A stretch of 64,000 nt of DNA from Clostridia bacterium (GCA_012840125.1 DULZ01000044.1:17975-81974); one strand, 5' to 3'; positions 8,440 through 64,000 are shown, numbered from the stretch's first letter. Notes: a model not told the origin generated them from the letters alone. Made by a program: numbers and translations.

Positions 8440-11400
8440 CTAAAAAGTCTTGCCCGGCTGCCAGCGGGAGAGCCGCGCGGCAATGATCCCGTGTCCCCGG
8501 TCCTGGACGGTGCCTTCCACCAGGATGAGACCGCTTCTTTGGCCGTAGATCTCCTGCCCGTAGCGCTGGTAAATGTCTTCAAACACCGTCACATCAACCA
8601 GGCCGTATTCATCTTCCACTGAAAAGAAGACCACCGTTTTGCCGCTCCTGGTAGGCGGGCGGTGGGGCCGCACCAGTATGCCGGCGATTTTCACCGCCGC
8701 CCCGGGGGGAAGCTCCCTGACACTGCGGCTGTGCTGGAACCCTTGCTGCTGCAACCACTGCCGGTAGTACGCCAGGGGATGGCAGCGCACATCAATCCCT
8801 AACACCTCTTTTTCCTGCCGGTGTTTTTCCCAGGGGGTGAAATCAGCGGCGATCCGCTCCTCTGCCACCGGCACCAGACCCGTTTCCTCTACTTGCTCCA
8901 AAAGGGGCACCTGCCAGAGGAGCTGCTTCCGGTTGGGATGGAGCCCGTCAAAAGCCCCGCTTAAAATCAGGTTTTCCAGGATGTGCCTGGGGGCCTTGAT
9001 CCTCTTTTGAAAATCAACAATAGAAGTATAAGGTTGGCCTGCTAAAATGGCCTGCAGCACCTCCCGGCTCATGCCCTTAACCTGGGCCAGGGAAATGCGG
9101 ATGGCGCCGTCCTCCACCAGAAAAGCGGCGCCGCTTTTATTGATATCCGGGGGCAAGATGGCAATCCCCCGGCGGCGGGCTTCCACGCATAAGGTATTGG
9201 CATCGTAATAGCCCATGGGCTGGTGGCTTAAGAGGGCGGCGAAATAATAAGCCGGGTAGTGACACGCCAGGTAAGCGGAGCGATAAGAGGTATTGGCGAA
9301 AGCCGCGGCATGGGCTTCACAGAAACCGTAGCTGGCATACCCCAAAATACAGCGAAAAATATCCTCCGCCACTTTTTGGTCCACCCCTTGGGCCTGGGCT
9401 TTGGCCACAAAGAGCTTTCCCAGCTCCTCCATTTCCTTCCGGGACCGGGAATGGCTCATCACCCGCCGCATCCGGTCCGCTTCTCCCCGGGTAAAACCGG
9501 CGACGGCGGTGGCTATTTCGATCACCTGCTCCTGGAAGAGAATAACCCCCCGGGTTTTTTTAAGGATCGGCTCCAGCTTGGGATGAAGGTAGGTGACTTC
9601 CTCCAAACCAAGTTTTCGCCGGATAAAAGGTTCCACCATGTCGCCTTTAATGGGCCCCGGTCTAATCAAGGCCAGGCTGGCCACCAGGTCCTCCTGGGTG
9701 GAAGCATGCAGGCGCTGCTGCAGGGCTCGCTGGGCCGGGCTTTCCAGTTGAAACACCCCGATAGTTTCCCCCCGGTTGATCATTTGGAAGGTGGCTTCGT
9801 CCACCGGCGGTATCCGCTCCTCGCAGAAATCTTCCCGTTCCCCGGTAAGAACCCGGACGGTATCCTCCAGCACCGACAACATCCGCAGGGAAAGGAGGTC
9901 CAGTTTCAGGAGCCCCAGTATTTCCACCCCATCTTTATCAAATTGGGTGACCACCACCCCTTTAGCCGCCCGCTGCAAAGGGGTGATGTTCGTTAAAGGC
10001 TGCCGGCTGATCACCAGTCCTCCCAGGTGGGTCCCCATAAACCGGGGCAGTCCCGCCACCTGCCCGCAGAAATGAAACAGCTGTTGGTACTTTTCCCCTT
10101 TAAGATCGCTTTTCCGGAGCTCCGGCAAGCGCTCCAAGAGGGCGGGAATAGCATCGGCATACGCATGGGGAAACAACTTGGCTATCCGGTCCAATTCTTC
10201 CGGCGCCAATCCCATGGCCCGGCCCAGGTCCCGGATGGCCGAACGGGCTTGAAAAGTATTGTACGTGCCCACGGAGGCCACATGCTCCGCCCCGTACTTC
10301 CGGTAAACGTAATCCGCCACCTGATCCCGGTAGCGGGCGTCAAAATCAATGTCAATATCCGGCTGCTCCCCTCTTTCCCGGCTCATGAAACGCTCAAACA
10401 AAAGCCCTCTCTCCAGCGCATCCACTTCCGTAATATACAAGCAGTAGCTGACCAGGGAATCCGCCGCCGAACCCCGGCCGGCATAGCGGATACCCTGCCG
10501 GCGAGCGAACATGGCCACATCCCATACCAGCAGGAAGTAGTCCGCATAACCCAGCTCATTGATCACCACTAATTCATAGTCCAACCGCTCCCGCACCCGG
10601 CGGCTGAGTTTCCCGTAGCGCCGGCGGGCACCCTCATACACCAGGCGCCGCAAGAAGCTCTCCGCCGTCTCCCCCGCCGGCAAAGAAAACTCGGGATAAT
10701 GCTTGGCGGACAGATCCAGGGGCGCCTCGCATTTCTCCGCTATCAAAAGGGTGTTTTGCACCGCTTCAGGATAATCCCGGAAAAGCGCCTCCATTTCCGC
10801 CGGTGTCTTAAGGTAATTCTCCTGGTTTAACGGGCGGTCCGGATGGATATCCGCCAGCCGGGTCAGGGTGCGCACGCAAGTTAAAAGATCATGCACCGGG
10901 AATTGCTCCGGCTCGGCGTAGTGGACGTTATTAGCGGCTACCAGGGGCGCGCCCGTCACCTGGGATAGCTGGGCCAGGCAGCGGTTTAAAGACCGGTCCC
11001 CGGGCAGCATGGTTTGTTCCAGTTCCAGGTAAAAATTTTCCCGGCCGAAAATGTCCTGGTACCGCCGCACCCGCTCCAGGGCTTCCCGGTACCTTTTTCT
11101 TAAGAGTAAAAAAGGAATCTCTCCCTTCCGGCAGCCGGACAAAGCGATTAAATCGCTATGGTATTCTTTCAGAGCAGCCAGGGTGACCCTGGGCTGTCCC
11201 CGGGGGTGATCCAGGTGGGCCCTGGTGAGAAGCCGGCAGAGGTTGGCATAGCCGCCGGCATTTTGGGCCAGCAGCACCAGGTGAAAGCCCTGCTCCAAAG
11301 TAACCTCGGCCCCGATGATGGGCCGGATCCCTACCTTTTGGCAGCGTTCCTGGAAAAAAGGCGCCCCCGCCACGTTGTCGTGATCCGTCAAGGCCAGGGC

Positions 11401-11508
11401 CGGCATCCCTAAGGCCGCCGCCTTGTCCACCAGTTCCTCCAGGCGGCTCGCCCCGTCTAAAAAAGAAAAAGGGGAATGAACATGTAGATGAACGAAATCC
11501 ACGTGCAT
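8440..11508 (-). CDS. dnaE2: Error-prone DNA polymerase III alpha subunit (DnaE2 type)
   Basis: PHP domain (HLHVHS, TDHD), RGSAADS, PDIDIDF, HLGG, FQLES, GFCEAHA, C-terminal OB fold; in a LexA-boxed cassette. Confidence 0.92.
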   Translation of the reverse strand: MHVDFVHLHVHSPFSFLDGASRLEELVDKAAALGMPALALTDHDNVAGAPFFQERCQKVGIRPIIGAEVTLEQGFHLVLLAQNAGGYANLCRLLTRAHLDHPRGQPRVTLAALKEYHSDLIALSGCRKGEIPFLLLRKRYREALERVRRYQDIFGRENFYLELEQTMLPGDRSLNRCLAQLSQVTGAPLVAANNVHYAEPEQFPVHDLLTCVRTLTRLADIHPDRPLNQENYLKTPAEMEALFRDYPEAVQNTLLIAEKCEAPLDLSAKHYPEFSLPAGETAESFLRRLVYEGARRRYGKLSRRVRERLDYELVVINELGYADYFLLVWDVAMFARRQGIRYAGRGSAADSLVSYCLYITEVDALERGLLFERFMSRERGEQPDIDIDFDARYRDQVADYVYRKYGAEHVASVGTYNTFQARSAIRDLGRAMGLAPEELDRIAKLFPHAYADAIPALLERLPELRKSDLKGEKYQQLFHFCGQVAGLPRFMGTHLGGLVISRQPLTNITPLQRAAKGVVVTQFDKDGVEILGLLKLDLLSLRMLSVLEDTVRVLTGEREDFCEERIPPVDEATFQMINRGETIGVFQLESPAQRALQQRLHASTQEDLVASLALIRPGPIKGDMVEPFIRRKLGLEEVTYLHPKLEPILKKTRGVILFQEQVIEIATAVAGFTRGEADRMRRVMSHSRSRKEMEELGKLFVAKAQAQGVDQKVAEDIFRCILGYASYGFCEAHAAAFANTSYRSAYLACHYPAYYFAALLSHQPMGYYDANTLCVEARRRGIAILPPDINKSGAAFLVEDGAIRISLAQVKGMSREVLQAILAGQPYTSIVDFQKRIKAPRHILENLILSGAFDGLHPNRKQLLWQVPLLEQVEETGLVPVAEERIAADFTPWEKHRQEKEVLGIDVRCHPLAYYRQWLQQQGFQHSRSVRELPPGAAVKIAGILVRPHRPPTRSGKTVVFFSVEDEYGLVDVTVFEDIYQRYGQEIYGQRSGLILVEGTVQDRGHGIIAARLSRWQPGKTF

Positions 11509-11512
11509 TCAC

Positions 11513-11758
11513 CTAGTCGTAGATTTTGTAAATAAACCAGGCATCCTGCCGGGTATCCAGGTAAATCTCAAAAATACTGCCCTGTACCGCGATCACGCGG
11601 TAAAAGATTTTCGTGTTTTCCCCCTCCCACCAGCAGCCCGCATCCTTCCAGCAGTCCAGAATCCGCTGGATGGGGTAGTAAGTTCCACGCCAACCAAAGC
11701 CCGCCGGCTTTCCCTCTTTTAACCGGACTTTAACGGGACATTCCAACACCCTACTCAT
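11513..11758 (-). CDS. DUF6504-like small protein
   Basis: FGWRG..YPIQRILDCW...GCWW, W-rich C-terminus; between imuB-like gene and dnaE2. Confidence 0.7.
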   Translation of the reverse strand: MSRVLECPVKVRLKEGKPAGFGWRGTYYPIQRILDCWKDAGCWWEGENTKIFYRVIAVQGSIFEIYLDTRQDAWFIYKIYD

Positions 11759-54821: not shown

Positions 54822-55889
54822 ATGAAAGACTTGCTGTTCGCGTTTAACTGCATCGAAGAAAATTCGCGCCATGGATTGTTGGGAGAATGCGCCGGTCCTC
54901 ATACCGTGGAACTGCTGCATCAAACCCTCCATGCCGCCGGTCACCGGGTCTGGCCCATCAATGTGCAATCCCCGGAACAGTTGACCTCCTATCTCCAAAC
55001 CATACCCCGGCCGGTCATGGCCTTTGTCTACGCAGAAGGTTTTATCCAACAGCCTGAAACTTTATGGAATGGAGCAGGGCAGAGCCTGTTACGGGAAATA
55101 TTATCACAGCACCATATTCCTTCCACTCATTCCACGGCGGAAGTAATGCAGCTTTGCCGTCACAAGCATTTAACCTCTACCCGGTTGGCAGCCTTCGGCT
55201 TACCGGTACCCCCGTTTATTACCGGCACGCCGAGCCGGTTTTTGCTTTCCCGGGAAGAGCCTGCGCTGGACTTTCCCTTGTTTGTCAAACCCGCCAGCGG
55301 CGGCGCCAGCTTGGGTATCGACGAAAGTTCCGTAGTGTTTAACCAAAGCCAGCTCAAACGAAAAATCGAACTGCTTTACCAGCAACTGGGCGACCTGCCG
55401 GTGATAATTGAAACCTACCTGCCCGGACGCGAATATACGGTTGGGGTGATCGGCAACGAGATCAAGTACGTCCTTCCCCCCATGGCTTTTTCTCCGGAAA
55501 CGGGAATTAGGGACTTGGAAAGAAAAAGAAATCCCCTGGACAACTCCTGGGAATTTCTAGCACCGGGCGACCCGCGCTGGCACCGGATCGTGAGTTTGGC
55601 TCATGCTGCTTTTGATGCCCTGAAAGCTTCCGATGTCGTCAGGATCGATTTGAAAGAGGACAGGCACGGGAACATCCATATCATCGATGTCAACGGCACC
55701 CCCGCCCTCGGCGCCAACGCTTCCCTGGTAGCCATGGCGGAATACATTGACATCAGCTACACCCAGCTCATCAGTACCATCTTGAAGAGCAGCTATGAAC
55801 GGCACCGGCTCGACCCGCCGGGCAGGCTGCTGGAGCTGGCCGCCGAAGGCATTGACAAGCTGATCTCTTATGCCACCCTGGTGGCATGA
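54822..55889 (+). CDS. D-Ala-D-Ala-ligase-like ATP-grasp enzyme
   Basis: FVKPASGGASLGI, ETYLPGREYTVG, RIDL, DVNGTP; N-terminus not typical of Ddl. Confidence 0.75.
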   Translation: MKDLLFAFNCIEENSRHGLLGECAGPHTVELLHQTLHAAGHRVWPINVQSPEQLTSYLQTIPRPVMAFVYAEGFIQQPETLWNGAGQSLLREILSQHHIPSTHSTAEVMQLCRHKHLTSTRLAAFGLPVPPFITGTPSRFLLSREEPALDFPLFVKPASGGASLGIDESSVVFNQSQLKRKIELLYQQLGDLPVIIETYLPGREYTVGVIGNEIKYVLPPMAFSPETGIRDLERKRNPLDNSWEFLAPGDPRWHRIVSLAHAAFDALKASDVVRIDLKEDRHGNIHIIDVNGTPALGANASLVAMAEYIDISYTQLISTILKSSYERHRLDPPGRLLELAAEGIDKLISYATLVA

Positions 55890-55896
55890 CACGAGC

Positions 55897-55934
55897 AAAA
55901 AGGCCCTACCTGCACCACAGGTACGGCCTTTTTT
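55897..55934. terminator. Bidirectional terminator
   Basis: AAAAAGGCC-C-TACCTG...CAGGTA-C-GGCCTTTTT. Confidence 0.8.
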
Positions 55935-55941
55935 CATCTAT

Positions 55942-57306
55942 TTACTTAATAGCCGGCAAGCAAGCCAGGCTGGCTTTAATGAATTCTTCATTATGCTCCA
56001 CGTCTTCCATGCCGCCGGACAGGTAGTGATCATAAGCCGTCAGGTCAAAATGGCCGTGACCGCTTAAAGTAAAGAGAATAACCTTGTCCTCGCCGGCTTC
56101 CTTGGCCCGGTTGGCCTCCCGGATGGCGGCGGCAATGGCATGGGCGCTTTCCGGCGCCGGTAGGATGCCTTCTGTCTTGGCGAACAAAGTAGCTGCTTGG
56201 AAGACCTCGGTCTGGACCACAGCCAGCGCTTCCACCAACCCGTCATGGTACAGCTGGCTCACCAGGGGTGAATCCCCGTGATAGCGCAGCCCCCCGGCAT
56301 GAATCCCCGGCGGCATGAATTCATGTCCCAGAGTATACATCCTCATCAGCGGAGTCAGCTTGGCAGTATCCCCGTAATCATAAGCAAACTCCCCGCGGGT
56401 CAGGGTGGGACAGGCTGCCGGTTCCACGGCCAACAGCCGCGGCCCTTTACCGGCCAGGACATCCGGTACGAAGGGGAAAGCCGTCCCGCCAAAATTACTG
56501 CCTCCGCCGCAGCACGCAATGACCACGTCAGGATAAGCATCCACCAGGGCCAGCTGTGCTTTGGCTTCCAGGCCGATAATCGTCTGGTGCAGCACCACGT
56601 GATTCAACACGCTGCCCAGGGCGTAATTGGTATCATCCCGACCGGCGGCTTCTTCCACCGCTTCACTGATAGCAATACCCAAACTGCCCGGGTTGTCCGG
56701 GTCCTTGGCCAGGACCTGTCGCCCCGCTTCAGTCAAATTGCTGGGGCTGGGAATGACGGTAGCGCCGAAAACCTCCATTAAGGACTTGCGATAAGGCTTC
56801 TGCTGGGAGGAGATTTTCACCATGAACACCCGGCATTCCAAACCGAAATAATTGCATGCCAAGCTCAAAGCCGTACCCCACTGGCCCGCTCCCGTTTCCG
56901 TGGTGAGCCGTTTAATGCCGGCCTTCTTGTTATAGTAAGCCTGCGGGATGGAGGTGTTCAGCTTGTGGCTGCCCGCCGGGCTTACCCCTTCATACTTGTA
57001 ATAAATCTTGGCAGGCGTGTCCAGGGCTTTTTCCAATTGGAAAGCCCGGTACAAAGGCGAAGGTCTCCACAACCGGTACAATTCCTGCACTTCTTCAGGA
57101 ATGTCAATCCAACGTTCGGTGGATACTTCTTGTTTAATCAACTCTTCGGGGAAAATCGCCGCCAAATCCTGCGGGCCGGCCGGTTCCTGGGTAACCGGGT
57201 TTAGAGGCGGGGCCGGTTTATTCGGCATATCAGCCTGCACATTATACCAGCGGGTAGGCATGTCCTTTTCGGGTAAGAAAATTTTGGTTGGATGGAATTT
57301 GCTCAT
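55942..57306 (-). CDS. trpB2: Tryptophan synthase beta-like PLP enzyme TrpB2
   Basis: [51 protein letters not shown]. Confidence 0.95.
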
Positions 57307-57974: not shown

Positions 57975-58238
57975 ATGCCTCAGCTTTCCGATAAGGACAT
58001 GATGCAAATCATCCTGGACAAGCATAAGCATTGTGCCGTAAAGCTAATCCAGCTGGCCATGGAATGTTCCGACTTCGGTCTCCGCAATGAGGTCCTCAAG
58101 ACCCTGGACATGTGTCTTAAGCACCAGCACCATACTTATGAACTGATGCGCCAGCTGGGCTGGTATCAGACCACGCCCGCCTCCCCGGATGAAATCAGGG
58201 GGCTCAAAAATCTCATCAACCAGCAAGCCATGGTATAA
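57975..58238 (+). CDS. Spore coat protein, Coat F family
   Basis: LSDKDMM, ECSD..LR, LMRQLGWYQ..PA. Confidence 0.75.
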   Translation: MPQLSDKDMMQIILDKHKHCAVKLIQLAMECSDFGLRNEVLKTLDMCLKHQHHTYELMRQLGWYQTTPASPDEIRGLKNLINQQAMV

Positions 58239-58243
58239 TGAAA

Positions 58244-58265
58244 GGGCTGTCCAATCGGACAGCCC
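58244..58265. terminator. Terminator hairpin
   Basis: GGGCTGTCC-AATC-GGACAGCCC. Confidence 0.6.
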
Positions 58266-58362: not shown

Positions 58363-59631
58363 TTACGCACTTGATAAATCTATAATCTCACCTATTCGGG
58401 GGACAATAGCCCTAACTCCTTTCTGACGGAGCATATGAGCTAGTTCGTCCCCTTTTTCGCGCGCTACATGGGTTATAACAACTATTGGATCTCCCTTTAT
58501 CTTCCTTAACATATCCTCAATATCTTTCCAATCTGGGTGGACTTTCCATGTAAATCGAGTTACTCTAGCTTTAATCCCATCAACTGCGCCTTTAAGTACT
58601 TGATCGCCTTTTGTTCCTTCATATAAGAAACCTGTAAAAATTATGCTGTTATTCTCTGATATCCCCAAGCGGTCTATGAGCTCCTTTGTGGCACCAGAGC
58701 TACCCATGGCGTCGGTGGCCAGAATTACAGCTTCCCCTTTTTGGGGTATGTCCGAAATACGGCAAAATTCCTTGATTTTTTCATTATCACAAATATTTGT
58801 TATTTGTGCCGGACATTTTATTCCGGATCTTTCTGGGTCACGCAGAAAACCTCTTAATCCCGCAAGAATTGGAGCCTCTACATATATTGGCACATTAACC
58901 TTTAGTGCGCTGCTTAATAAAATCAAAATTTCTTGAGAGCGTCCAATGCGGGGAACGGGCAGAAGAACGCTCCCCCCCTTACTAACCGTAGCTGTAATTG
59001 CTTCCAAAAGCTGCTCATAAATACTATCCTGCCTTATAACAGCAGCCCCATATGCTCCATCCAAAACTACGGCATCAGCATGGCCGCTAAACTCAGGAGG
59101 AGAAATGAATAAGCTTGAAGTGGACCAATCGCCTGTGTATATTATTCGCTTGTCACCCCACATGATATCAAACCATGCTGAACCTGGTACGTGGCCACTG
59201 GGATTAAAGCAAATCTCGCAGTCTTTAATTTTTATCTTGACCCCGAAATCAACAGGGTGTAAGGGTAAAGATAATACATGCTCCATTTCGTAGGGCTTCT
59301 TATGCCCCATAGAATCAACTGCCTGTAACCAAGCAGAACAACTTTTGGTAACCTCCGGTACAACTAAATGATGCGTATATATCGGCCTCTGAATTCCTAA
59401 TTTTGTAAGAACCGGGAGGGCTCCGCAGTGATCTTCGTGAGCGTGGCTTAAAAAAGTAGCGTCAATACGAGTTAATAGATTAACATCCCACTGAGGGTAC
59501 TCCCCTGCCTTAAAAGCAGTAAATGTACGTTTAACGCCGCAATCCATTAGTATAAAGCCATTTCCATCCCCCAATAGAAAGCAAGAACGTCCTTGCTCGG
59601 AGACTCCTCCCCAGCAGTACAACTTTAACAT
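58363..59631 (-). CDS. Metallo-beta-lactamase/beta-CASP-type hydrolase
   Basis: HAHEDH, GHVPGS, YTGD, DGAYG, GRSQE, VHPD. Confidence 0.85.
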   Translation of the reverse strand: MLKLYCWGGVSEQGRSCFLLGDGNGFILMDCGVKRTFTAFKAGEYPQWDVNLLTRIDATFLSHAHEDHCGALPVLTKLGIQRPIYTHHLVVPEVTKSCSAWLQAVDSMGHKKPYEMEHVLSLPLHPVDFGVKIKIKDCEICFNPSGHVPGSAWFDIMWGDKRIIYTGDWSTSSLFISPPEFSGHADAVVLDGAYGAAVIRQDSIYEQLLEAITATVSKGGSVLLPVPRIGRSQEILILLSSALKVNVPIYVEAPILAGLRGFLRDPERSGIKCPAQITNICDNEKIKEFCRISDIPQKGEAVILATDAMGSSGATKELIDRLGISENNSIIFTGFLYEGTKGDQVLKGAVDGIKARVTRFTWKVHPDWKDIEDMLRKIKGDPIVVITHVAREKGDELAHMLRQKGVRAIVPRIGEIIDLSSA

Positions 59632-59744
59632 CGACTAACCCCCTGTTTCTGTGACGGCTTAAAAACAAACTTGCTTCGCCATTTAAGGATTCTATCTTTC
59701 GGCAACGCGTCGGCCCAAATAGAGCTTCCGGAAAAACTCGTTTC

Positions 59745-60989
59745 TTATGCCCCGAACTTGGATGTAAAACCCATCAAATCCATTAGAACATTGAAGAAAG
59801 CCGAGCCAGTAATTCTGCCCAATCCACCACCGGCGCAACTTCTCTCTCCGAAGTGAGTTTGCAGGTCGCTTCGTACCGCAGGTCCCCACATGGCCGCAGG
59901 AACTGGATCGCCTGAATGATCACGTATGCTACATGGAGTGGAGTGATCGCCGGTTATGGCTACATGAACACCTGCTTCTAAACCGTCCAACAAGTTCCCT
60001 ACTAGCAAGTCTAGTTTTTCTGCGACCTCTATCTTGAGGTCCCATCTTCCGTCGTGACCCGCAAGGTCTCCTGCCTTTACATGAATTACTACTAAATCGA
60101 ACTTCTTTATCAATTCTAAGGCTAACCTGGCTTTGGCCACAGGATCAAAATCATAAGAGCCGGTTATACCTTCACCTGAGAACACCTCAAGTCCCGCCAT
60201 TCTTCCTATAGCAAGCACAGTGTTTTCACCGGTTATAAGAGCTCCTTTCAGCCCTTTATAACGCTCGCCGAGGGGCGGAATAGCGTTAACAATCCCTGCG
60301 CCGCGCGTTAGGACTGCATTGGCTGGCGGTAACCCAGCCGCCTCTCTGGCAAGGTTGACTGGGTGTGCTTTCAATTTTTCTTTTGCTATATCAAGGAACT
60401 TCTGCACCAATCTAGCGGTCTTAGCAGCTTCGGGGGTATTGTCCAGCGGGCAAACTTTGCGCATTGGCTGTCCTTCACAAGCAGTACCGGGATCTGAATC
60501 AGAGACAGCTGGGCTAAGACCGGGCCCGCGGAGTACCAGTACGGCCCTATGTTCCGTACCGGCAGCGAAGAAAGCAACTGTATCTTCGCCCAAGTAAATC
60601 TTATTAAGGCAGGAGGCTAGTTCACTTGTTCCCTCTTTTATGCGGCCCGCTCTTCTGTCGACTACTATACCTTTCTCATCGATGGTGGCAAAATTACACC
60701 TGAAAGCCACATCGCCCGCCTCAAGCTGTAACCCAGCCCCCAAGGCCTCAATAGGACCACGACCCTTATAGCATTTAAAGGGATCGTATCCTAAGGCACA
60801 CAGCGTGCCTACATCTGTACCACAGGGAACCCCTGGGGCGTAGGGATCCACCAACCCAACAATACCGCTACAAGCCAGCCGGTCCAGGTTGGGAGTGTTG
60901 GCTGCTTCTAACGGCGTCTTCCCCTTCAACTCCGAAACAGGACGGTCACCAAGACCATCTGCAATTACCAGCACACCTTTTGTCTTCAT
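59745..60989 (-). CDS. ApgM-like cofactor-independent phosphoglycerate mutase family enzyme
   Basis: ADGLGD, TPLEAANTPNLD, YKGRGPIEALG, DRRAGRI, DLAGHDG, GDHSTP; GTD where GSD is expected. Confidence 0.85.
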   Translation of the reverse strand: MKTKGVLVIADGLGDRPVSELKGKTPLEAANTPNLDRLACSGIVGLVDPYAPGVPCGTDVGTLCALGYDPFKCYKGRGPIEALGAGLQLEAGDVAFRCNFATIDEKGIVVDRRAGRIKEGTSELASCLNKIYLGEDTVAFFAAGTEHRAVLVLRGPGLSPAVSDSDPGTACEGQPMRKVCPLDNTPEAAKTARLVQKFLDIAKEKLKAHPVNLAREAAGLPPANAVLTRGAGIVNAIPPLGERYKGLKGALITGENTVLAIGRMAGLEVFSGEGITGSYDFDPVAKARLALELIKKFDLVVIHVKAGDLAGHDGRWDLKIEVAEKLDLLVGNLLDGLEAGVHVAITGDHSTPCSIRDHSGDPVPAAMWGPAVRSDLQTHFGERSCAGGGLGRITGSAFFNVLMDLMGFTSKFGA

Positions 60990-61024
60990 CAGCTACTTCT
61001 CCTTTTATGCTTTTTTATGGCTGC

Positions 61025-61795
61025 TTAAAGTACCATATGCCTCCGGAAATATAGGAGCGCTCCGGCAACGAGCACAGTCGCTGCCCACGAAATTCCTGTC
61101 TTGGTAGAAGTTATTTCTTTAACATAACTCAACTCCACCTTTACGGAGGACCCTGTCGGTACACCTGGGGCATCCTCGTTGCCAGACAATTCCACAGTTA
61201 TACCGCTTGAATTATTGTCTCGTACTACTTTAAAGTCTTCCTTAGGAGAAGTGACCGCGAACACTTCACAACCCGGGGGCAAGGTAACCCTGCAAGTGTA
61301 TTTTCCTATGCCATAGGGAGTGTTGTTTTTGAAATTATAACTGAAATTCCTGAGATCGCCTCTGCTGGTTGGGCCACCTTCTGCATTTGTCTTATTGCTT
61401 TTTGCCTCTTTAAAAAGTTCCGGGACGAGATAAGTTATTTTTAGAGTTACTTCTTTAATTTCGCCGCTGTCTTTGACATTCCACTGATACCATTTATTAC
61501 CGCCATATTTTACTTCCTTGGGTTCCGGGTCTTCTACTGCAGCACCTGTAACCTCAGTCTGAACCCAGCTACCCTTTAGAGCAGGTTGGGGTAAAACTAT
61601 AGCCCCTTCGGGTCCCGGCTTTCCTTTCCAGATAACTTCTAGCTTCGCATCACCATTGGCGGAAGCCACTATCTTTTCTTCCAACTCATTATTAACTTGC
61701 TCTGCTTGCACCGGCGACGACCACTGCGCTAGGAGTATCAAGCCCAGGCAGATACTCCATACTGTTATCAATAGCCCTCTCATGAGCCCTCTCAT
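61025..61795 (-). CDS. Hypothetical exported, membrane-anchored protein
   Basis: Signal-peptide-like N-terminus, C-terminal TM helix plus RRH; RBS present. Confidence 0.7.
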   Translation of the reverse strand: MRGLMRGLLITVWSICLGLILLAQWSSPVQAEQVNNELEEKIVASANGDAKLEVIWKGKPGPEGAIVLPQPALKGSWVQTEVTGAAVEDPEPKEVKYGGNKWYQWNVKDSGEIKEVTLKITYLVPELFKEAKSNKTNAEGGPTSRGDLRNFSYNFKNNTPYGIGKYTCRVTLPPGCEVFAVTSPKEDFKVVRDNNSSGITVELSGNEDAPGVPTGSSVKVELSYVKEITSTKTGISWAATVLVAGALLYFRRHMVL

Positions 61796-61820
61796 AGAAC
61801 ACCCTCTCCCCTATTGACTT

Positions 61821-63296
61821 TTAATATAGCCCGATCCATTTAAACCACGTCACGGCGGCCAGGCACATGAGCGCGCATTTTACGAGCAACACGATTACTC
61901 CGTAGAAGAGCTGATTAGTAACGGTGAACTGGCCCGTCGAATAGAAAATCAAATTCGGCTTGCAGTTAGGCGGCAAGGTTATGCTATCAGCGATGGTGAA
62001 AGCTGCTGGTAGGGCCAAAGCCAACGGATTGTAGCCTGTCACTTTAGCCAGTTCGATTATGGTTGGTAACAAAATAGCGGTCCGAACTGTTTTGGATGTA
62101 AAGACCATATGGCTGAAACTTGATATGAATACTACTGCGGCGAATACCAGTATAAACGGTAGCTGAGACAAGTTGGCTGCTCCAAAAATACGGCTTAACG
62201 CCCACGATGCGATACCCGCATTCTCAAGAGCCATACCTACTGCGTAGGCTCCACAGCTAAAAATCATAAGATCCCAAGGGATCTGGGTCTCTTTCCAGTT
62301 CAACAGACCTGTTAGATACATGAGAGTCGCAGCCAGAATGGCAACCATTACGAGCGAAATATTAAACCCGAACATTTTTACATGGTAAGGTCCCGTTGCC
62401 CATAGGAATACTGTGAGTACAAATATACCTAAGGCCTTCCATTCTTCTCGATTCAAGCGGCCCATATTTTTTATTTCTGCTCCCATTTTTTCCAGCCCCT
62501 GGCCCTTAGGAGTTCTGACCTCAGGAGGATAGAGCAGAAGACCGATAAAGTAACCAAGTATCATAGTCATAAAGGCTATGGGCATAGCGGCCAGGAACCA
62601 CTGACCCCAACTTACGTTTACACCGGCAAGGTCTTTAAGGAATCCTACAGCCATTATTTGCGGAGCAGTAGCCGTCAAAATGCCACTAGTGCTAATATTA
62701 TTTGCCTGAAGTTCCTGAATCATCAGTAATCTACCAAAATTAGATTTACCTGGGATAGCTCCATAAGCCTCGGCTAGTGCTAAAGCCAGGGGCAACATGA
62801 TAGCAGCCCGCGCCGTAGTGGAAGGGACAACTAAGGTAATTATGAAGTTGACAATAATCATCACCAGAAGGGCCGTTTTGGCTGTCTTACCGAATTTCGT
62901 GATCATGAATAATGCCAGCCTTTTGCCTAACCCCGTTTTCTCCATACCTGAGGTAATAATAAAGGCTGCAACCATGAGCCATATTACGTCATAGCCGAAA
63001 ACACCCAGGATAGATTTTTCATCCCATGCTCCTGTAATTGCCAGCAAAACAATAGCCACCAAGGCCGTTACATATACCGGGATGGCTTCGGAAACCCATA
63101 GTATCAGGGCCAAAAAGAATACTGCGGCGGCGGCCTTGCCCTGCATCGTTACACCCGCCGGCGCAGGCATAGTGTACAACAAAGTAAAAACTATAATGGC
63201 AAGAGGCAGTCCTAAATACGTGAGCCATTTTTCAGAAGGGCTCTTATTACGTTGAGCCAATAGGTTTTTGGGAGCCGTTTTTTCTCTACTTGTCAT
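61821..63296 (-). CDS. DASS/SLC13-family Na+-coupled anion symporter
   Basis: WVSEAIP, VPSTTARAAI, TATAPQ, IPWD, TLPP..KPN; many TM helices. Confidence 0.9.
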   Translation of the reverse strand: MTSREKTAPKNLLAQRNKSPSEKWLTYLGLPLAIIVFTLLYTMPAPAGVTMQGKAAAAVFFLALILWVSEAIPVYVTALVAIVLLAITGAWDEKSILGVFGYDVIWLMVAAFIITSGMEKTGLGKRLALFMITKFGKTAKTALLVMIIVNFIITLVVPSTTARAAIMLPLALALAEAYGAIPGKSNFGRLLMIQELQANNISTSGILTATAPQIMAVGFLKDLAGVNVSWGQWFLAAMPIAFMTMILGYFIGLLLYPPEVRTPKGQGLEKMGAEIKNMGRLNREEWKALGIFVLTVFLWATGPYHVKMFGFNISLVMVAILAATLMYLTGLLNWKETQIPWDLMIFSCGAYAVGMALENAGIASWALSRIFGAANLSQLPFILVFAAVVFISSFSHMVFTSKTVRTAILLPTIIELAKVTGYNPLALALPAAFTIADSITLPPNCKPNLIFYSTGQFTVTNQLFYGVIVLLVKCALMCLAAVTWFKWIGLY

Positions 63297-63485
63297 ACCT
63301 TTTAACCTTACCTCCTTAACGTTTTAATTTTCTTAATGCTTATATCTGATTTAATATTTCTACCTATTCTCAATCTTTCTACTTAATCGCGGCCTAGTTT
63401 TTTTCTAAAGCTACATCAAGTCTTTTCAAGTAAGAGTTTATTTAGAAGGAATTCAGATGTACAATACCGAATTATTTATCTAATT

Positions 63486-63503
63486 GATAAGGCTAACCTT
63501 ATC
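63486..63503. promoter_or_regulatory. Inverted repeat in the divergent LysR/DASS promoter region
   Basis: GATAAGG-CTAA-CCTTATC; one base longer than the T-N11-A LysR rule. Confidence 0.4.
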
Positions 63504-63523
63504 GATTGGAAAGGAGTCCGGCC

Positions 63524-64000
63524 ATGACCTTAAGGCAGCTTCGTACTTTCTGCTGTGTAGTAGAAGAGGGGGCTTTTCACAAGGCCGCAGAACGCTTGTT
63601 CCTGACCCAACCAGCCGTAAGCCAACAGATAAATCTCCTTGAACGATATTATGGAACTAAGTTATTCGTGCGTAAGGGTAGAAAAATTTCCCTTACCCCG
63701 GAAGGTCGCTTCTTGTACGAACTAGCAAAACAGATTTTGTCCGCCATCGATGAAATTCCAGTAAAGTTTGAGGAGCTTCGCAGTACCGGCATAAAGACGA
63801 TATCTATAGGGGCTTCCAGTTTGACAGGAACTTATATACTCCCCACGGCCCTAAACATATATAGGAGATTGTACCCAGGTATCAAAATCTCTCTTGAAAT
63901 AGGCTATGCTAAGGATATAATTCAAAAGCTTCGTGAGCGCCAACTTGATTTTGGTTTTTTTGGAAAGCACCCAAGCTGGTCAGAAAATGGAGAGCTAAGG
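63524..64000 (+). CDS. LysR-family transcriptional regulator, truncated by the window end (not in ORF track)
   Basis: GGAAAGGAG RBS; MTLRQLRTFCCVVEEGAFHKAAERLFLTQPAVSQQINLLE...LTPEG. Confidence 0.95.
   Translation, partial: MTLRQLRTFCCVVEEGAFHKAAERLFLTQPAVSQQINLLERYYGTKLFVRKGRKISLTPEGRFLYELAKQILSAIDEIPVKFEELRSTGIKTISIGASSLTGTYILPTALNIYRRLYPGIKISLEIGYAKDIIQKLRERQLDFGFFGKHPSWSENGELR

Follow-up and report, generated by a model that had tools for sequence, protein, structure and literature searches.

A horizontally inserted importer operon of a Clostridia bacterium carries a divergent beta-CASP hydrolase and may serve the use of an organic phosphate anion

To our knowledge, beta-CASP enzymes, as far as they have been described, are treated as nucleases of nucleic acids, and we know of no characterised bacterial carrier of the DASS family with a single-pass ectoprotein partner. 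Among functional analogues of the system described here, Salmonella PgtP provides inducible uptake of phosphoglycerates with an unrelated transporter family and unrelated regulators, and PhnP is a phosphodiesterase of the metallo-beta-lactamase (MBL) fold that acts on a small cyclic phosphate and is not a beta-CASP enzyme. The system lies in a 64,000-nt stretch of a Clostridia bacterium (GCA_012840125.1 DULZ01000044.1:17975-81974; the window), part of contig C36 in a draft genome totalling 2.47 Mb, and consists of four minus-strand genes and one divergent regulator gene in the order LysR <> DASS carrier - anchored protein - ApgM - beta-CASP hydrolase. On balance, the cluster is probably an operon complete in itself, brought in by horizontal insertion and induced by its substrate, that serves to take up and catabolise an organic phosphate anion from outside the cell. 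More tentatively, the hydrolase could belong to the first beta-CASP clade that acts on an imported metabolite, and the carrier could be the first of the DASS family with a dedicated single-pass ectodomain subunit. In the literature searched, no paper mentions beta-CASP together with phosphoglycerate mutase (PGM), and, judged from titles and abstracts, none of the papers that mention beta-CASP along with ABC transporters and operons ties the fold to small-molecule uptake. A sequence-only reading of the region had listed the same five genes, all of which are present as described, and its interpretation held for the horizontal origin, the co-conservation of the genes, the non-RNase character of the hydrolase and the fit of the exported protein to an accessory role, but was not supported as regards ApgM, which looks like an ordinary PGM at its active site, or as regards phosphonate.

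The hydrolase P0002 (58363-59631, minus strand; 422 aa) is cytoplasmic, with no signal peptide, and scores above cut-off with Pfam Lactamase_B and Beta-Casp (34.7 bits for the latter, cut-off 27.7). Together with an AlphaFold2 model (predicted local distance difference test (pLDDT) score 92.9), these matches predict an MBL domain into which a CASP domain is inserted. A Foldseek search with the model returned 2YCB, 9BCT, 6V4X and 2DKF, and the model superposes on aCPSF1/FttA, CPSF73, IntS11, TTHA0252 and Cas14, at template-modelling (TM) scores of 0.80-0.88. Across 71 aligned sequences, the MBL and beta-CASP motif residues D30, H63-A-H65-E-D67-H68, H147, D168, D191, H365 and H388 are invariant or nearly so, and P0002 retains the metal ligands, motif B His365 and motif C His388. 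The two-domain fold and the metal ligands and motifs (HxHxDH, H147, D168, His365 and His388) are common to P0002 and the beta-CASP ribonucleases TTHA0252, RNase J, aCPSF1/FttA, CPSF73, IntS11 and Cas14, whereas phylogeny, substrate-side motifs and genomic context set the window type apart.

Phylogenetic trees were built as quick searches, with support from the Shimodaira-Hasegawa-like approximate likelihood ratio test (SH-aLRT) only. The 35 RNase-type beta-CASPs form one clade with 100% support, and all sequences encoded beside transporters, that of the window included, fall outside it. All 36 transporter-linked sequences possess HAHEDH where the RNases have HxHLDH, D-x-A-Y where the RNases have E-x-T-Y, K-V-H where the RNases have S-G-H, and D307 where the RNases have serine, along with invariant W101 and W153. 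S-G-H, E-x-T-Y, S307 and a G-G motif are, conversely, fixed in the 35 RNase-type sequences and replaced in 36/36 transporter-linked ones; the PDB holds TTHA0252 mutants at precisely the S378 and H380 positions. The RMMBL domain falls just under its cut-off in P0002 (21.4 bits against 21.6), and equivalog models for ribonucleases score far below theirs (aCPSF1, 157.6 against 580; RNase J, 29-33 against 400-820). Judged from its sequence, P0002 thus appears to have neither an RNA-specificity domain nor the RNase-type substrate-side residues that would mark an enzyme of nucleic acids. The concern that the hydrolase might prove to be an ordinary RNase is answered by its context, phylogeny and motifs taken together. 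A defence or CRISPR-type-VII-like nuclease module is suggested by Cas14 (PDB 8YHD), which is the best solved sequence match (E 1.6e-32), and by 116.5 bits with NF045584; the cut-off of that model is 800, PADLOC matches none of the five proteins, no cas genes or repeats are present and the adjacent genes encode transporters and a metabolic enzyme, so that this reading is effectively refuted.

Loci of the transporter-linked clade were drawn from a genome-collection scan, a metagenome scan and a 401-genome phylum sample, together about 55; the class-level search sample comprised six genomes only. In each contig that extends far enough, the beta-CASP gene lies beside an importer, either DASS or an AfuA/PhnS-like ABC system; a LysR or dCache-AraC regulator is usually adjacent as well, and a PGM-type enzyme is often present. 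Unlike the beta-CASP ribonucleases, the window type is therefore encoded within importer operons that LysR or AraC regulators control and not in RNA-processing contexts, and its nearly constant position beside nutrient importers suggests that it probably degrades an imported phosphate compound rather than RNA. Three operon designs can be distinguished. Type A, that of the window, is LysR <> DASS - anchored - ApgM - beta-CASP (five sequenced loci and one partial locus, L111). Type B is LysR <> ABC ATPase - binding protein - fused permease - beta-CASP (~25 loci, including Paenibacillus). Type C combines a membrane dCache-AraC sensor, an ABC importer, a circularly permuted GpmI-type protein and a beta-CASP (~12 loci, including C. 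asparagiforme and Clostridiales VE202-15). The Type A beta-CASPs fall in three sub-clades interleaved with those of Types B and C, suggesting that the importer was swapped around a constant enzyme.

Among solved structures, the Type B binding protein is closest to AfuA, which binds sugar phosphates, and P5PA, which binds pyridoxal phosphate (PMC4546632), although the match reaches no more than 94.5 bits (E 6e-26). Such AfuABC and P5PA importers are absent from the window and bear on its substrate class by analogy only. The Type C regulators imply extracellular ligand sensing by virtue of their dCache_1-AraC architecture, in which the dCache_1 match scores 27.5 bits, under its cut-off of 45. 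These regulators are ~740 aa long, lie beside the beta-CASP gene (L006:5734-7965, L003:9303-11522 and L016:5763-7976) and end in a C-terminal AraC helix-turn-helix domain. Other features of the clade loci were also observed. The beta-CASP of L016 (7986-9252) is split into two overlapping open reading frames (ORFs), a likely frameshift, and in the Type B contigs L135, L136, L138 and L139 (~10001-11560) the beta-CASP match lies in two pieces ~240-290 bp apart, suggesting an inserted segment. Two clade beta-CASP genes flank one LysR-ABC operon in L102 and L126, and two Type B operons (L095:8042-8899, minus strand; L096:10058-10930, plus strand) possess a conserved ORF of ~285-290 aa, with no Pfam match, that overlaps the beta-CASP gene at its end. 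Enolase adjoins the beta-CASP gene in L006 and phosphoenolpyruvate (PEP) carboxylase adjoins the LysR gene in L091, each a single case.

The full five-gene order of the window recurs in Clostridium lamae (L004) and in the metagenome contigs L104, L105 and L108. Both Thermanaeromonas toyohensis ToBE and a single Neomoorella thermoacetica assembly have protein copies 88-93% identical to those of the window, and in both of them consecutive protein accessions indicate an identical gene order; copies 64-85% identical are present in N. glycerini. In the other Type A loci, identity to the window copy is about 52-58% for the DASS carrier, 42-47% for ApgM, 29-33% for the beta-CASP and about 21-25% for the anchored protein. 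The flanks are unrelated in every other locus (EF-G/EF-Tu, a fructose-bisphosphate aldolase, an integrase fragment), and the retention of gene order between unrelated flanks indicates that the five genes are the unit. The four operon genes, whose separation elsewhere had been named as a result that would undo the proposal, are thus kept together in at least five sequenced loci and in three genomes inferred from protein records. A shorter version is present in G123 (L185 = G123:C20, 7390-12010), where LysR <> DASS - anchored - ApgM is followed, with no beta-CASP, directly by the unrelated genes prkA-yhbH(DUF444)-spoVR. The elements are rare: in the 401-genome phylum sample, the hydrolase clade was found in 4/401 genomes and the DASS/anchored pair in 2/401. 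Carriers include cultured T. toyohensis, N. glycerini, C. lamae, C. asparagiforme and Paenibacillus.

This conservation bears on the simplest alternative, that the genes are loosely or accidentally adjacent, with ApgM as an auxiliary glycolytic PGM, the beta-CASP as an RNase acting, for example, on the operon mRNA, and the DASS carrier serving an ordinary di- or tricarboxylate. The canonical active site of ApgM is in line with such an arrangement, as are the full fold and complete nuclease catalytic motifs of the beta-CASP, including the motif-C histidine typical of RNA-specific members, and the dicarboxylates carried by the nearest solved DASS relatives. A five-gene order kept at 30-58% identity over distant Firmicutes between unrelated flanks is, however, hard to reconcile with chance, the beta-CASP clade follows importers through three operon designs while lying outside the RNase clade, and its substrate-side motifs differ where those of RNases are fixed. 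Loose adjacency is therefore considered improbable.

The cluster occupies an AT-rich island of 6.55 kb that extends from 58266 to the window end at 64000 and on to about window-equivalent position 64671, ~670 bp further. Its GC content of 0.459 (genome mean 0.535, standard deviation 0.027) places it in the lowest 0.4% of 1,923 6.5-kb windows, and GC content at third codon positions is 0.37-0.48 in the five cluster genes against 0.61-0.71 in the flanking genes; the low-GC stretch stops just past the LysR gene. The AT-richness seen by eye in the sequence-only reading is therefore real and far beyond chance. A direct repeat of ~146 bp borders the island. Its left copy (58120-58265, plus strand) comprises the 3' end of a CoatF gene and a terminator hairpin, GGGCTGTCCAATCGGACAGCCC, and its right copy lies outside the window at window-equivalent 64672-64818; the two copies (L002:1095-1240 and L002:7647-7793) are 97-99% identical and spaced 6552-6553 bp apart. 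In three relatives of the same family (L182, L180 and L181) the site is empty and CoatF adjoins an orf188-methionine-gamma-lyase-aldolase block, with a gap of 64 bp in L182, and the empty site of relative G005 holds a single copy of the repeat sequence. The island thus combines deviant composition, flanking direct repeats and an empty site in relatives, as genomic islands do, and these features, along with the 88-93% identical copies in other genera, strongly support the proposal that the cluster was horizontally acquired and is mobile.

No integrase or transposase gene is present in the island, in which every long ORF is accounted for. A 116-aa minus-strand ORF at window-equivalent 64480-64830 (L002:7455-7805) overlaps the right repeat copy, corresponds to the duplicated CoatF 3' end and is probably no real gene. 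An Rfam scan of the island found nothing, riboswitches included, and promoter and terminator scans of the island gave matches no more numerous than in shuffled sequence.

The carrier P0004 (61821-63296, minus strand; 491 aa) belongs to the DASS family by PF00939 (276.1 bits, residues 30-490) and TIGR00785 (247.4 bits, cut-off 198.6). By family and by nearest solved sequences (PDB 9MCU and 6WU1) it resembles the DASS exchangers, namely LaINDY (6WU1) and the plastid carriers DiT1/DiT2.1 (9MCR/9MCU), but it differs from them in that the window-type DASS gene is always followed by a gene for a dedicated single-pass beta-sandwich ectoprotein. In the window this is P0001 (61025-61795, minus strand; 256 aa), an anchored exported protein in which a signal peptide precedes a beta-sandwich ectodomain and a C-terminal transmembrane anchor, the ectodomain and the helix that follows it being seen in an AlphaFold2 model of pLDDT 77. 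P0001 has no Pfam or NCBIfam match and only four sequence relatives among 5.8 billion proteins, and a profile built from nine orthologues recognises the 253-aa protein of G123 with a probability of 97%. A fold search placed ribophorin I closest (Z 11.5) and also matched M1-peptidase N-domains and ITIH1, which points to a generic beta-sandwich, and no binding-protein fold was among the matches; an Atlas search returned unnamed look-alike clusters and leads to DUF2207 and DUF5803.

The anchored protein is present in the same position in every Type A locus and is absent from all operons of Types B and C. When the 401 genomes were searched with the DASS orthologue and with the profile of the anchored protein, both matched the same two genomes, the window's own and G123 (2/2 against 0/399), whereas the beta-CASP clade matches a different set. 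The protein therefore belongs with the DASS carrier and not with the enzymes, and by these sequence patterns P0001 is a candidate DASS accessory subunit. The exported protein had already been proposed as a transporter accessory, and the exact tracking of the carrier fits that role.

The ApgM paralogue P0003 (59745-60989, minus strand; 414 aa) scores 412.7 bits with TIGR00306 (cut-off 320) and, marginally, 489.6 with NF003104 (cut-off 489), and it matches the Pyrococcus horikoshii ApgM (PDB 2ZKT) over its full length (E 2e-107). Of the 74 positions with at least 97% invariance among 102 general ApgMs it keeps 73, the exception being G260A, and it retains the G-T-D nucleophile motif. By these measures P0003 resembles the archaeal enzyme and looks, at the active site, like an ordinary PGM. 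It differs from archaeal ApgM in being a probable extra copy, carried on an island, in bacteria with a GpmI of their own, in its control by LysR together with a transporter, and in a small signature close to the nucleophile (Y50, C56 and C64) that is shared by the cluster-linked ApgMs. These fall into two separately supported clades, and Type C operons have the permuted GpmI-type protein instead. This repeated recruitment of a PGM-type enzyme argues that the pathway needs ordinary PGM chemistry.

A canonical GpmI is encoded elsewhere in 5/5 other carrier genomes tested and in 4/5 family relatives, adjoining enolase in G002 and G005. None of the family relatives has an ApgM, which leaves P0003 the sole ApgM in its family of genomes. 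The window's 97%-complete draft lacks gpmI, tpi and eno alike; the adjacency of gpmI and eno in G002 and G005 suggests that the glycolytic block is present in the strain and probably unassembled. That P0003 is the sole PGM of its genome was considered and rejected, as tpi and eno are also missing from the draft. The draft's Metalloenzyme match on C98 is deoB, and its sole His_Phos match is CobC beside cobD. GpmI-type proteins with swapped halves (profile positions ~201-504 first, then 2-207) were observed at L003:5393-7048 and L005:5471-7045 and in G042, G043 and G044; their summed score of 447.9 is above the TIGR01307 cut-off, each genome has one or two of them in addition to a normal GpmI, and one copy is linked to a beta-CASP/ABC operon.

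The partner enzymes help to distinguish between possible cargoes. Were the hydrolase to act on imported dinucleotides, cyclic nucleotides or nucleotide-diphospho compounds, the cargo would again be anionic and the fold and catalytic machinery would be those of known 5'-3' exo- and endonucleases. Nucleoside or pentose-phosphate enzymes are, however, encoded in none of the clusters, the recurrent partner is of the phosphoglycerate mutase and not the phosphopentomutase type, and the S-G-H motif on the phosphate/RNA side is replaced, making salvage of nucleotides or oligonucleotides a poor prospect. Still less probable is phosphonate catabolism, the phosphono part of the phospho(no)-carboxylate named in the sequence-only reading. 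LysR and the binding proteins show weak, sub-threshold similarity to models of 2-aminoethylphosphonate systems, and PhpG, a member of the ApgM family, acts in phosphonate biosynthesis. Against this, P0003 scores 269 bits with the PhpG model (cut-off 545), every phosphonate-model score is far under its cut-off, genes for C-P lyase, phosphonatase, PhnA/PhnX/PhnW-type enzymes or PEP mutase are present in no locus examined, and none of the evidence tested points to phosphonate.

In Types B and C the ABC importers belong to the AfuA/PhnS/ferric cluster, which handles phosphorylated ligands, and Type B is reduced to importer and hydrolase; both features would also suit the scavenging of phosphorus, in which an organophosphate diester is imported mainly for its phosphate and the PGM tidies the carbon skeleton. 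Regulation is instead by LysR or dCache-AraC in all loci seen, with no Pho-type two-component system, although Pho boxes were not searched for, and use of the carbon is suggested by the PGM-type enzymes, recruited more than once, and by the neighbouring enolase and PEP carboxylase genes. Phosphorus scavenging is accordingly unlikely, if somewhat less so than the nucleotide route.

The regulator gene is divergent from the operon (63524-64000, plus strand, ending at window-equivalent 64417). It extends 417 bp beyond the window end, with the N-terminal ~159 aa inside, and encodes a full-length protein of 297-303 aa; a start at 63524 (ATG behind AAAGGAG) is more likely than one at 63506 (TTG). The product possesses an N-terminal HTH_1 and a LysR_substrate domain, as expected of a LysR-type regulator, and the best NCBIfam match of the full-length protein is LysR_Sec_metab, associated with selenium metabolism (NF040786; 225.7 bits, below the cut-off of 250). 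The divergent control region (63297-63523; 228 bp, GC content 0.32) contains a dyad of the T-N11-A form bound by such regulators, TTATC-N5-GATAA (TTATCTAATTGATAA), at 63476-63490. In mesophilic loci of Type A the matching place is occupied by ATAAC-N5-GTTAT, and a second related site lies closer to the DASS start; dyad and second site together correspond, by sequence, to the usual LysR layout.

In the proposed uptake-and-catabolism operon, LysR would bind the dyad in the divergent region and switch on the four genes when bound to the compound or its product. The DASS carrier would bring in the anion, perhaps exchanging it for one from inside the cell, and would work together with the single-pass beta-sandwich ectoprotein dedicated to it. 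In the cytoplasm the beta-CASP, with its two-metal centre kept and its substrate side remodelled, may then cleave a phosphodiester, cyclic-phosphate or phosphoanhydride bond of the imported molecule, and ApgM would interconvert the resulting 3- and 2-phosphoglycerate for entry into lower glycolysis, which the enolase and PEP carboxylase neighbours fit. The chemistry, the order of the steps and the substrate class are thus inferred, the last from the enzyme families, the AfuA/P5PA relatives of the Type B binding protein, the recurring PGM partner and the anion carrier. Speculative guesses at the cargo are 2,3-bisphosphoglycerate or cyclic 2,3-diphosphoglycerate (cDPG), from methanogens or blood cells, which the hydrolase would open and the mutase feed into glycolysis. 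PMC10690619 describes cDPG as exclusive to hyperthermophilic methanogens, and on that account the cDPG idea is weakened, many carriers being mesophiles of gut or soil.

Several observations weigh against this interpretation. The beta-CASP of the window is without four clade-consensus residues (S11, N143, R268 and F335) and lies on the branch closest to the RNase clade. The active site of ApgM is the same as in housekeeping ApgMs and so says nothing specific on the substrate, its status as an extra paralogue in the window's strain is inferred from relatives and assumes the gap in the draft, and the enolase and PEP carboxylase neighbours are each a single case. The G123 cluster lacks the beta-CASP and the Type B loci lack a PGM, suggesting that the two enzymes may act independently on related cargoes and need not be sequential.

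A delimited beta-CASP clade with altered motifs in 36/36 sequences, found in three importer operon designs, makes the recruitment of this fold to small-molecule metabolism directly testable, and experiments are feasible since the module is mobile and present in cultured strains. The automatic names 'Ribonuclease', 'RNA processing exonuclease', 'phosphoglycerate mutase' and 'hypothetical protein' are probably misleading for its products, and a DASS-specific ectoprotein partner, if true, would be new for that transporter family. Directly to the left of the island, at 54822-57306 of the window, lie a D-Ala-D-Ala-ligase-like ATP-grasp gene and a gene for a TrpB-like pyridoxal-phosphate enzyme (NF009057, 749.7 bits), both of which are native, because relative G002 has them too beside its empty site.

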